Below, one piece after another: positions 12,994 to 30,939 of a stretch of 64,000 nt of DNA (positions within the stretch are counted from its first letter, which is position 1; each line of letters opens with the position of its first letter). Source of the stretch: Octopus vulgaris (Eukaryota); assembly GCA_951406725.2 (NCBI GenBank), contig OX597818.1:90334001-90398000 (forward strand), in the 5' to 3' direction. The notes below the pieces were generated by a model that was not told where the DNA came from, made no database searches, and saw nothing but the letters and a program-made list of their open reading frames with translations. The translations under genes and the position numbers were made by a program.

Positions 12994-14543
12994 TAAATCC
13001 TTAAATCCTTAAAAATGTTTTAGCCCGAAGGCCGCGGCCATGCTGGGGCACCACCGCTGAATGAGCTACACTAGTTTGTGAATCCACCTCTGATACGTGG
13101 CACTTGATCAACAAGGGAGTTCGATGCTGCTGCCCGCATCCGTGTCTCCTGTCGTGAGGTAGGTTCATCTGGGACTCCCAACAAGAAGAGATCCAGTTTA
13201 GTTTTAAAGAAACCCACATCCACACCATGTAAGTCTCTCAGGCATTTAGGGAGGATGTTAAAGAGCTGTGGTCCTCTGAAACCCAAGCTGTTGCAGTATC
13301 TGGACCTGTATTTTGATGGTGATGTTGGAATCCTTGGCACCACGCAGCGGCGCCCCGTTCTGCGGTTGGAGTAACTTTGAATGCCAAAGTTTGGGACAAG
13401 ACCCTCCAGGATTTTCCAGATGTATATCACTGCATATCTCTCCCGCCTCCGCTCCAGGGAGAAGAGGTTTAATACCTTCAGTCTTTCCCAGTAGCTGACA
13501 TTTTGCATTGAGACGATTTTCTTTGTGTAGCTTCTCTGAGTTGCTTCGAGTTCTGCTGTTTGTTTTATATTGTGTGGTGACCAAAGTTGGGAGCAGTAGT
13601 CCAAGCGGCTGAGGACAAATGTTTTCCATAGGACCATCAGTGTCTCCTTCTCTCTTGTTCTGAAAGTTCGGAGAATCCATCCAGCTAGCCGTCTGCATTT
13701 TATCACCAGATTAGCAATATGCATTTGGAAAGATGCATCATTGCTCATGTCAATGCCCAGGTCACGCACTGATTTTGACTCAGGGATTGCAATTCTTCCT
13801 GGGCCAGTGTATCCAGTCTTCACGTCATTTACCTTTGTGTGCCAGTAGCGCAGGGCCTGGAACTTACCTGCATTAAACTGCATGTTGTTGTCCTCAGCCC
13901 ACCTGTATATTGTGTCCAGCTCATGTTGCAGATGCGCAATATTTTCAGGGTTTTGTATTGCGTGGGAGACTTTTGTGTCATCTGCATAGCTAGCAAGGGT
14001 GGTCATCGTAGCAACTGAAGGCATGTCTGAAAGGGCCACTATGAACATCAGTGGCCCCAAGACAGTGCCCTGTGGGACACCGCTTGTTATTTGCGTTTCC
14101 CTGGAGGTGGCTCCATTGCTCACAACTGCCTGTTTTCTGTCTTTTAGGAAGTTGTGCAGCCACTCTCCAAGTCTCCCGCCTATGCCGAGACCACGCAGTT
14201 TGTGACAGATCATACCATGGTCGACTTTATCAAAGGCTTTTGCAAAGTCAAGATATATTACATCCACATTTGAGCCATTTAGTAGCTGTTTCAACACCCA
14301 GTCATATTGTTGCAGGAGCTGTGTTAGGCAGCCTCTACCTGGTCGAAATCCATGCTGGGTGTCAGACAGTAAGTCATTTTCTTCAAGGAACATGATTAGT
14401 TTCTTACGGACTATTCGTTCCATGACTTTGCTGATGTGTGAGGTCAGAGAGATAGGCCTATAATTTTTAGCATCTGCTCTGCTACCCCCCTTATGGATAA
14501 GGCATATTACCCCCTCTTTCAGTTTGACTGGGAGCTTACCACT
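12994..14543 (-). mobile_element. CR1-group LINE copy A, 5'-truncated, open RT ORF
   Basis: ORF 13071..14543 with [23 protein letters not shown]; short 3' UTR ending in (TAAGGATT)n; (TA)n on both sides. Confidence 0.92.
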
Positions 14544-16497
14544 TATATATATATATATATATATATATATTAAATATATATATATATATGTATGTATATA
14601 TATATTAAAAAAAATATATATATATGTATGTATATATATATATATATTATATATATATATATTATATGTATGTATATATATATATATTATATATATATAT
14701 ATATATATATTATATGTATGTATATATATATATATATGTATATATATATATATATATATATATATATATATATATATATATATATATATATATATATATA
14801 TATATATATATATATATATATATATATATATATATATATATATATATGTATGTATATATATATTATATATATATATATATATATATATATATATATGTAT
14901 ATATATATATATATATATATATATATATATATTATATATATATATATATATATATATATATATATATATGTATGTATATATATATTATATATATATATGT
15001 ATATATATATATATATATATATATATATGTATGTATATATATATATATATATATATATATGTATATATATATATATATATATATATGTATATATATATAT
15101 ATATATATATATATGTATGTATATATATATATATATATATATATGTATGTATATATATATATATATATATATATATGTATGTATATATATATATATATAT
15201 ATATATGTATGTATATATATATTATATATATATATATATATATATATATATATATATGTATATATATATATATATATATATATGTATATATATATTATAT
15301 ATATATATATATAATAATTATATATATATATATATATATATATATATATGTATATATATATATATATATATATGTATATATATATATATATATATATGTA
15401 TATATATATATTATATATATATATATATATATATATATATATATATATATATATATATATATATATATGTATGTATATATATATATATATATATATATAT
15501 GTATATATATATATATATATATATATATATATATATATATATATGTATGTATATATATATATATATATATATATATATATATATATATATATAGTATATA
15601 TATATGTATATATATATATATATATATATATATTATATATATATGTATATATATATATGTATGTATATATATATATATATATATATATATATATATATAT
15701 ATATATATATATATATATATATGTATATATATATATATATATATATATATATATATATATATATATATATATATATATATATATATATATATATATATAT
15801 ATATATATATATATATATGTATATATATATATATATATATATATATATATATATATATATATGTATATATATATATATATATATATATATGTATATATAT
15901 ATATATATATATATATGTATGTATATATATATGTATGTATATATATATATATATATATATATATGTATATATATATATATATATATATATATATATATAT
16001 ATATATATGTATATATATATATATATATTGTATATATATATATATATATATATGTATATGTATATATATATATATATATATATGTATATATATATATATA
16101 TATATATATATATATATATATATATATATATATATATATATATATATATATATATATATATATATATATATATATATATATATGTATATATATATATATA
16201 TATATATATATATGTATATATATATATATATATATATATGTATGTATATATATTATATATATATATGTATATATATATATATATATATATGTATATATAT
16301 ATATATATATATATATGTATGTATATATATTATATATATATGTATGTATATATATATATATATATATGTATATATATATATATATATATATGTATGTATA
16401 TATAATATATATATATATATATGTATATATATATATATATATATATGTATGTATATATATATATATATATATATATATATATATATATGTATGTATA
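14544..16497. repeat. About 1.95 kb degenerate (TA)n array with TGTA interruptions
   Basis: Directly visible between LINE A and LINE B. Confidence 0.95.
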
Positions 16498-29400: not shown

Positions 29401-30939
29401 ATGCTGGCTATATTCCAAAAACCTTCTGTCCCAGTCTGTTGTCCCGGTTTTCAAAAAGGGAAACAAGTCCCTTGCAGTGAATTACCGTCCGATCTCACTC
29501 ACCTCTCATATCATCAAGGTATTTGAGAGGGTGGTGAGATCTCGAATAACCCAATTTCTGGAAAGCAACAGACGGCTGATCTCCAACCAACATGGGTTCC
29601 GTAATGGAAGGGACTGCCTAACGCAGCTCCTGCATCACTTTGAGGACATTTTGAGAGCTTTGGGAGAGGGCTCCAACACCGATGTCATCTACCTTGATTT
29701 CAGTAAGGCCTTCGACAGGGTCGATCACAAGATCCTATTGAAAAAACTATCCAACATTGGTGTCTCTGGAAAGTTACTGAAATGGATTAAGTGTTTCCTG
29801 ACAGACAGATCTCAACATGTTGTAGTTGAAGGGGTAAAATCAAGCCCAGCCAAAGTCAGTAGTGGCGTTCCGCAAGGCACTGTGCTGGGCCCACTTCTTT
29901 TCATTATTTACATTAATGACATTAATGACATCATCAAGCACAGCAACATAAAAATCTTTGCAGATGACTCCAAGCTACAGAAGGTCATAAATGAGGCGAG
30001 TGACCGGACATGCCTTCAGTCAGATCTACTGGCTGTTATCCAATGGGCAGAAAAAAACAATATGCTGCTGAACGAGGATAAATTTGAGCTAATCCACTTT
30101 GGAAAAGAGGATGCCCTGAAACTCCCATACTCCCTTCCTTCAGGTGAAACTCTCGCGGCGTCCAACAACATCAGAGACTTGGGAGTAATTGTGGACAACA
30201 ACGTAAGCTGGGCCACTCATATAAACACCAAAGTTGACATGGCCCGCAGAATGTGTTCCTGGATTCTCAGAACTTTCCAGTCGAGAGATATCCACACCAT
30301 TATCCTTCTCTTCTCCACTTTTGCCCGACCCCACCTTGAATACTGTTGTCCACTGTGGTCTCCCCACACAATACAAGGTATCATAAAAGTTGAAGCACCT
30401 CAAAGGGCAATCACAAAAAAGATAGATGGCATGACAGGCCTCGACTATTGGGGTCGACTAGAAAAGCTAAAACTCTATTCTCTCCAACGTCGTCGTGAGC
30501 GCTACATCATCTGCATGATGTGGAAAATATTCCATCAGCATTGCCCAAATGATGTTGGCATCACCTTTAAGGTACATCCAAGGCTTGGGCCCCGTGCCAT
30601 CCGCCCAAAACAAAAATCGCACTCTCATCTCATAACAACAATACGGCACAATTATTTCACCTCAATTGGCCCCGCTCTCTTTAACATTACACCAAAACAC
30701 ATTAAAACAGAAACTATTAAAACAGAAACCCTATAGGGTTCAAGAAGTCTTTGGACAGATTCCTTCAAGAAATCCCGGATAAACCCCCTACACCCGGATA
30801 TGTCTCTGTAAACAATAACTCTCTACTTGAGTGGGCCATAGTGCCCAAATTCTGACTTGAAAGACTTCACCAGGTGGTGCTATTAAGTTAGACATGGCCT
30901 GGGCCAATAATGGCCGAAACCTATCAAAGTATCAAAGTA
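26493..30939 (+). mobile_element. CR1-group LINE copy D, near full length (5' UTR, ORF1, APE-RT ORF2 with frameshifts near 28840, 29420 and 30725)
   Basis: APE motifs (LLNAQG, LTETHL, GDFNLP, SDH) and RT motifs (YLDFSKAFD, GVPQG, FADD); reconstructed stop TGA 30853-30855; (TATCAAAG)n tail. Confidence 0.95.
26611..27714 (+). CDS. LINE D ORF1: Myb/SANT-like N-terminal domain, Q/P/S-rich linker, two CCCH zinc fingers
   Basis: [16 protein letters not shown]...EIAEK...[13 protein letters not shown]...FK pattern; [19 protein letters not shown] and [19 protein letters not shown] (C-x8-C-x4-C-x3-H). Domain names by eye, no HMM run. Confidence 0.75.

Follow-up and report, generated by a model that had tools for sequence, protein, structure and literature searches.

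The window analysed here, a stretch of 64,000 nucleotides from Octopus vulgaris (assembly GCA_951406725.2, contig OX597818.1, positions 90,334,001 to 90,398,000 of the forward strand), carries an array of four long interspersed elements (LINEs), A to D, likely of the CR1 group, all of which lie in TA or TACA repeats within one intron of a transglutaminase gene. The association of the array with TA repeats is real and above random placement, at this single locus. The reading that we favour, with a probability of about 0.5, is a relaxed insertion directed at TpA steps and funnelled into very long TA tracts, the enzymatic steps of which we infer by analogy. The array and the exons on its two sides are arranged as follows.

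12019..12189, minus strand: transglutaminase exon downstream of the intron (span of the tblastn match, the true boundary being slightly inside)
12895..12994, no strand: TA tract on the left, containing the variant units GTAT and ATTAAA
12995..14546, minus strand: LINE A, a 3' stub with the reverse transcriptase (RT) and C-terminal part, open over 490 codons, with a twin 3' hairpin and a TAAGGATT tail (Pfam, alignment)
14547..16498, no strand: TA tract between A and B, with the variant units found beyond the other side of A
16499..18081, minus strand: LINE B, a 3' stub with one frameshift near 17080, one stop and an (AATC)n tail (tblastn against C)
18082..18507, no strand: TA tract 5' of B, in which pure TA extends over at most 160 nt
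18508..19384, no strand: segment X, non-simple AT-rich DNA which interrupts the tract, unassigned
19385..23007, no strand: degenerate TA tract of 3.6 kb, the final 330 bp being a TAAAGATAC/(TACA)n unit
23008..26114, minus strand: LINE C, with an apurinic/apyrimidinic-type endonuclease (APE, about 26055-25348) and RT, without the first open reading frame (ORF1), with a (GTAAAAGA)n tail (Pfam)
26115..26492, no strand: 378-bp minisatellite of (TA)n-AAGA-(TACA)n build, separating C from D
26493..30938, plus strand: LINE D, near full length, with a twin 3' hairpin and a (TATCAAAG)n tail (Pfam, contig comparison)
30939..31511, no strand: right (TA)n-AAGA-(TACA)n minisatellite (573 bp), sharing its unit with the repeats to the left of C and in the C/D spacer
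34070..34243, minus strand: transglutaminase exon upstream of the intron (tblastn)

All eight junctions of A to D touch TA or TACA repeats, as the initial annotation of this DNA had reported, and seven of the eight flanks have at least 6 TA per 20 nt, the left flank of D being of the TACA type with 5. The spacers also contain variant units. ATATTAAA is present in two copies on each side of A and is missing from the other spacers. The three spacers that adjoin C and D contain 4, 7 and 10 copies of TAAAGATAC, which is likewise missing from the others. Although TA lies to either side of B, its two flanks have no variant string in common. These units hold one strand although C and D face opposite ways, and their match across A, C and D indicates that the tracts predate the insertions. 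A, C and D thus have the same repeat on both sides, older than the insertion itself, as is characteristic of microsatellite targeting. Microsatellites seeded by the element tails were rejected as the source of the tracts, since the units keep their strand regardless of element direction and are found on the 5' sides as well. The array had been described as lying in a single (TA)n tract, which is not the case, as the 877 bp of non-simple DNA at 18508-19384 split the A/B side from the C/D side and the two sides carry different variant units. This segment X was considered as an APE relic and rejected, the profile match (E=0.058) falling short of significance.

TA terminates the tails of A, C and D and adjoins that of B; the 5' joins of A and B are compatible with 2-nt microhomology. 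Three spacers hold pure TA runs, of 108-160 nt. The minisatellite (22680-23007, 26115-26492 and 30939-31511) is interrupted by AAAG, which resembles the end of the D tail; an origin of this interruption as a relic of a tail-only insertion is speculative.

The host gene was recognised by 12 colinear minus-strand tblastn matches to an O. vulgaris hemocyte transglutaminase, of which six are 100% identical. By this exon mapping A, B, C and D are all inside a single intron of about 22 kb, the largest of the window, between the exons 34243-34070 and ~12189-12019. The intronic location initially assigned to the array is thereby confirmed, and insertion into pre-existing TA/TACA tracts within a host intron is supported by the variant units together with the mapped exons. 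The remaining 44 kb or so of the window, mostly intronic, contain no long copy of the A-D type.

The end coordinates of the four elements are given to within 2 nt, owing to microhomology. APE upstream of an RT of the type without long terminal repeats (non-LTR) in C and D (Pfam PF14529/PF03372 and PF00078) defines LINEs of the APE type, and the fixed 3' end with a tail and the variable 5' truncation seen in A to D are those of LINEs. RVT_1 (PF00078) was found in A, C and D; C and D also gave Exo_endo_phos_2, and the RT of B was recognised through its tblastn match to the RT of C. A and B are 3' stubs of about 1.6 kb each, and C starts just before the APE domain and runs through to the tail with a single frameshift near 24950-25035. 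In D, ORF1 (26611-27714) is followed by an APE-RT ORF2 (27715-30736) split over three frames. The long open frames attributed to each copy were therefore overstated: A is indeed open, yet is a stub of 490 codons, and B, C and D are frame-broken. ORF1 of D has a Myb/SANT-like N-terminus, then a linker rich in Q, P and S, and a CCCH-type finger in two repeats, none of which reaches the Pfam cut-offs. RVT_1 was the sole Pfam domain found in the RT ORFs, neither RNase H nor a C-terminal CCHC zinc knuckle being found, and all four copies have short tandem-repeat 3' tails. The lack of RNase H and of a CCHC knuckle and a short tandem tail are marks of the CR1 group, and the assignment of A to D to this group, which is likely, is based on domain content and tails. 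The 5' truncations of A and B (14546 and 18081) fall at a near-homologous point, about 20 nt apart on the sequence of C, which may be due to chance or to a common stalling site.

A, B and C share 71-77% DNA identity, with 1.1-2.6 synonymous (dS) and 0.13-0.20 non-synonymous (dN) substitutions per site and a dN/dS of about 0.1, and D has 44% protein identity and a saturated dS. The near-saturated dS and the low dN indicate that A to D diverged as active elements under selection and are not tandem copies. Tandem duplication as the origin of the array is ruled out by this divergence, by the differing tails and by the matching variant units which flank A, C and D, and the independence of the insertions is borne out. 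The tails are also as the initial annotation gave them, but the four families differ in how distinct they are: the first three are sisters, and D lies on another branch.

The RT tree comprised 105 sequences, namely A to D, at most 25 top matches from each of two protein searches, three extra sequences and 50 of 81 loci; protein matches covered at least 270 residues, and the tree was rooted at the midpoint and was built without named references. A to C cluster with three unnamed proteins and one Argonauta protein (support 0.997) and D pairs with another Argonauta protein (support 0.995). The two branches belong to one lineage (support 1.0) which includes many unnamed marine sequences and ctenophore elements; they are not sisters, each being interleaved with other marine elements. 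Both non-octopus relatives with a visible 3' end, namely L002, a member of this lineage, and L075, not long enough to enter the tree, have a tail of similar build ending in TA and then a non-TA flank, which speaks against strict targeting. In a metagenome scan covering 1 of 64 parts of the collection, the best segments of the 80 loci retained were 25-47% identical to C; none of the 80 ends in (TA)5 or longer and five carry such a run internally, many of the loci falling short of the element end. The GTDB genomes gave nothing with the RT of C and nothing with the 3'-end motif, and the viral contigs gave one short RT match and no match to the 3'-end motif. YI-type runs, the read-through of a TA flank, were found at the N-terminus of none of 271 homologous proteins, which is uninformative as gene callers start at internal ATGs.

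Pieces related to the array are found elsewhere in the window and comprise four short interspersed elements (SINEs) with a tail of C type and one vestige of A.

2479..2889, minus strand: SINE with C-type tail, non-TA flanks
32852..33247, plus strand: SINE with C-type tail, non-TA flanks
49946..50335, minus strand: SINE with C-type tail, TA-rich 5' flank and non-TA 3' flank
53793..54172, plus strand: SINE with partial C-type tail, TA-rich 5' flank and TA/TACA 3' flank
60698..60713, plus strand: exact 16-nt copy of 3' hairpin 1 of A, within a separate TA tract (0.01 matches expected from shuffles)

A search with the ORFs of C and 120 homologues as queries gave no further RT or APE match of the A-D type in the window. 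The statement that no other intact element is present thus stands, to be qualified by the SINEs and the vestige. The latter, about 48 kb from A, is by its sequence taken as a vestigial fifth copy and counts in favour of a TA bias. Among the tail-bearing SINEs one of four has a TA 3' flank and two of four a TA-rich 5' flank. A TA tract also marks the end of two copies without a tail. The three non-TA 3' flanks of the tail-bearing copies count against strict targeting. The copies with a C-type tail are 11-18% apart. We only assume the SINE to be a tRNA-SINE; ARAGORN gave no confirmation of a tRNA head. Just upstream of the tail a twin hairpin is shared by A to D and three SINE copies, with 94% of cells paired. 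Three of its 12 pairs are changed on both sides, and the covariation score was reached by none of 500 shuffles, the structure having been derived from the same seven related rows on which it was scored. The minimum-energy fold of A is without hairpin 2. This shared structured 3' end corresponds to a LINE/SINE pair in the stringent sense.

D was compared with the contigs of four sequencing runs from four studies; this comparison was made for D only, repeats were skipped, and 24 of 140 loose ends were listed, three of them with informative 3' flanks. Three substitutions were found in all four runs and one further in three of the four, so that D is about 99.9% identical to the contigs, private indels aside, and at about 0.1% from its family is very young. 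The private differences, absent in all four runs, are an extra stretch of 11 nt and three 1-nt indels, the latter located in short runs of one base; the frame breaks of D are private or consensus errors. At least 20 sequencing runs (10 studies) contain 88-92% of the words of D, and no RNA run is among the listed runs sharing them. Sequencing depth over D climbs toward the 3' end in all four runs, related families contributing to it. As to the flanks, in one contig a D-type tail is followed by a different TACA/CA flank (loose end 30943) and a sister-family consensus continues into TATATA (loose end 30908), both of which support a TA bias, and one diverged D-type tail in X1 continues into unique sequence (loose end 30925), which speaks against strict targeting.

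TA tracts make up 17.4% of the non-element DNA in the window, giving a probability of 9e-4 for four of four copies at random sites. They contain 50.9% of the TpA steps, and insertion at any TpA gives P = 0.067 for the four copies and P = 0.17 for the vestige, so that this model is not rejected (P ~0.07). The figures for the four copies are rough, as the window was chosen post hoc and present-day tract sizes, possibly grown since insertion, were used.

The predicted model of the LINE C endonuclease has a pLDDT of 95 and its top fold matches are LINE-1 endonuclease structures, with a TM score of about 0.7, so that the enzyme is by this model an ordinary APE fold. A phmmer search of the APE of C against PDB gave no match, whereas the fold search did. 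The endonucleases of C and D retain the conserved catalytic motifs. The length of their PTR-x4-LDL segment is the one most often found in relatives (38 of the 61 scored, out of 70 aligned). The alignment of relatives reveals no distinctive recognition loop, and no rare APE residue in it is common to the A-C clade and D.

In relaxed TpA-directed insertion, the ORF2 protein would bind the twin 3' hairpin and the endonuclease would nick a flexible TpA step, where target-primed reverse transcription would begin. The terminal TA of the RNA tail would pair with the nicked strand and prime the reaction, TA microhomology assisting both the priming and the 5' join. Long tracts would be favoured since half of the local TpA steps fall within them and since such DNA is presumably easily bent or unwound, with no need for strict sequence recognition, and a large intron would tolerate the inserted copies. 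As far as the available text of the two sources goes, the 3' ends of CR1, L2 and RTE elements share one to several bp with their targets (PMC6007223), and the L1 endonuclease senses DNA structure at T-A junctions (PMC1950540).

Several points weigh against this reading. It is based on a single sampled locus. The fit of insertion at any TpA reaches only P=0.067 and 0.17, and a stronger preference fits at least equally well. The TA credited to the end of the tail could equally be derived from the target. The SINEs are old; another partner, of greater age, may have mobilised them, in which case they are uninformative about C. Finally, the likely match of the PTR-x4-LDL segment to the minor-groove hairpin is judged from alignment and general APE topology rather than from residue-level superposition.

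The first alternative is strict microsatellite targeting, by which the octopod families insert almost solely into (TA)n or (TACA)n, in the manner of Dong with TAA and Waldo with ACAY. Two old octopod branches would then be specific for these repeats, with expanding TA microsatellites as a renewable safe landing site and tract growth fed in return. We regard this as possible but doubtful. All four long copies and the vestige are in TA tracts, and another D-type tail in public contigs precedes a TACA/CA repeat. Of the 140 loose ends 24 were listed, and no truncated D copy with a clear, unique 5' flank is among these, a weak argument since rare variants are lost from contigs. A known kind of targeting does occur in this window, as indicated by the R4/Dong-like piece between (AAT)n arrays described below. 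Against it are the non-TA 3' flanks of three of the four tail-bearing SINEs, the diverged D-type tail in X1, the flanks of L002 and L075, the absence of shared derived APE residues, and the separate branches of A-C and D, which would require two origins or wide loss. The radiation of (TA)n-specific elements that had been proposed is, for these reasons and for the TA-bracketed Penelope-like pieces and the fit of insertion at any TpA, not demonstrated. If true, strict targeting would be a new origin of targeting outside R1/Tx1, with an unchanged recognition loop and possibly acting via DNA structure.

Passive accumulation supposes near-random insertion and survival in a dispensable intron, TA seeds or target duplications having later grown to kilobase tracts. 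TA tracts are frequent, making up 4.5% of the window when the array is set aside, and for the O. vulgaris genome the available text of its repeat annotation (PMC13282606) puts simple repeats at 7.45%; two unrelated Penelope-like pieces are likewise bracketed by TA. In its accessible part, a review (PMC3812793) reads Drosophila Waldo-A/B in just this way, as passive accumulation with later tract growth. The explanation is nevertheless unlikely here. D is only about 0.1% from its family, yet lies between 378- and 573-bp arrays of a complex unit also present beyond C, and the other ~44 kb, mostly intronic, are without a long copy of this type.

Less likely still is endonuclease-independent capture, in which TA tracts, being cruciform-forming or fragile, break and various retroelements are patched in. 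The fragility of TA repeats is well established, the pure runs of 108-160 nt in three spacers would be prone to it, and the bracketing of unrelated repeats by TA is in line with it; but all four 3' ends are intact with tail repeats, as normal target-primed insertion gives, and the C and D endonucleases keep their catalytic motifs. An assembly artefact, with repeat copies from separate loci misjoined through TA tracts, is very improbable. The 1-nt indels of D, which suggest consensus errors, speak for it; against it, the locus-specific variant units agree on both sides of A, C and D, which argues against a misjoin, and the host exons are colinear across the intron.

Besides the array and its relatives the window contains other repeats, two of which are given here.

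31512..31821, plus strand: repeat E, short and unrelated to A-D, bracketed by TA and containing a hammerhead-like core (31721)
34376-35019, 45713-46729, 49130-49613, 54718-55114, 57594-58171, 61289-62297: second SINE family

Repeat E is presumably Penelope-like, as judged by the motif of its hammerhead-like core; Rfam gave no family at gathering score, the only hits being chance microRNA hits on the TA repeats near E. Two short Penelope-like pieces, at 31512-31821 and 63039-63226, contain hammerhead-like cores and are bracketed by TA, and a third at 954-1130 has TA on one side. The fragment 51700-52270 has what we take to be a Penelope-type RT motif. Between (AAT)17 and (AAT)19 arrays lies the decayed 3' part of an R4/Dong-like LINE (44007-45597, plus strand), with what we assume by eye to be the RT end and restriction-like endonuclease motifs; its position between AAT arrays is a known kind of microsatellite targeting. 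The second SINE family has many copies, often in tandem, several of which adjoin (AAT)n arrays. Self-BLAST gave fold-back inverted repeats resembling miniature inverted-repeat transposable elements (MITEs) at 394-849, 5326-5501, 12481-12794, 41147-41388 and 48272-48566, that at 41147-41388 having a TA repeat at its centre and ends. A decayed transposase-like element, Tc1/mariner-like by eye (37480-38355), adjoins TA repeats, and a 97-bp GC-rich insert (7029-7125) is located within a TA/TATG tract.

Among known systems the closest is the CR1 group itself, for which the available text of PMC13343379 gives CR1, L2, Crack, Daphne, Kiri, Rex1 and Zenon, and of which O. vulgaris has 169 CR1 consensus families, 13 of them recently active, in the accessible part of PMC13282606. 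The array resembles this group in its APE and RT in ORF2, 5' truncation, short tandem tails and partner SINE sharing the 3' end, and in that no RNase H or C-terminal zinc knuckle was found. It differs in the candidate (TA)n preference, none being found for the group in the literature searched, which had Repbase Reports and subscription journals outside its scope and held no TA-targeting CR1-group element. The term "target site" is absent from the main text of the O. vulgaris repeat annotation (PMC13282606) as available, and Myb/SANT and CCCH-finger terms, to both of which ORF1 of D has weak hits, are absent from the available text of an ORF1 survey (PMC4120745). CR1-Zenon has, as described in the available text, a poly-A tail and no ORF1 (PMC13343379), whereas the tails of A to D are tandem repeats and D has an ORF1. 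A genome-wide TA-repeat preference, if true, would be new for the CR1 group, and a TA-biased lineage would help to explain the giant TA arrays and large introns of octopus genomes; if there is only a TpA bias, the result is a modest addition to octopus repeat annotation.

Among the microsatellite-targeting elements, Koshi targets TTC and Dong targets TAA. Non-LTR elements of this kind listed in the available text of PMC3812793 and PMC4640811 are Waldo (ACAY), Mino (AC), Kibi (TC), Togen (TG) and Dong (R4 clade), with also a TTC-targeting element, and target-specific LINEs of the APE type are placed in the R1 and Tx1 clades (PMC4640811, available text). As with these, A to D are inside a simple-repeat tract present on both sides, and D is in TACA, the same repeat as the ACAY of Waldo. 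Unlike A to D, Waldo, Mino, Kibi, Dong and Togen belong to R1, Tx1 or restriction-like-endonuclease clades, and their specificity is established over many copies, whereas A to D are one locus with counter-examples. For TA repeats the accessible part of PMC3812793 lists only a MITE and no LINE; this element, Micron of rice, shares the TA microsatellite target with the array, but is a DNA transposon with an unrelated mechanism. Bird CR1, which prefers TTCT sites matching its octamer tail (PMC2612034, available text), has a tail-matched weak site preference as proposed here, but no tie to long microsatellites. Set against these systems, A to D are plausibly a new form of microsatellite-biased LINE insertion, strict specificity being unproven. 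The sister families have swapped their tails and retained a single 3' hairpin, and a TA-biased CR1-group lineage, whether strict or relaxed, would be a test case for site preference arising from DNA structure together with tail-target pairing.

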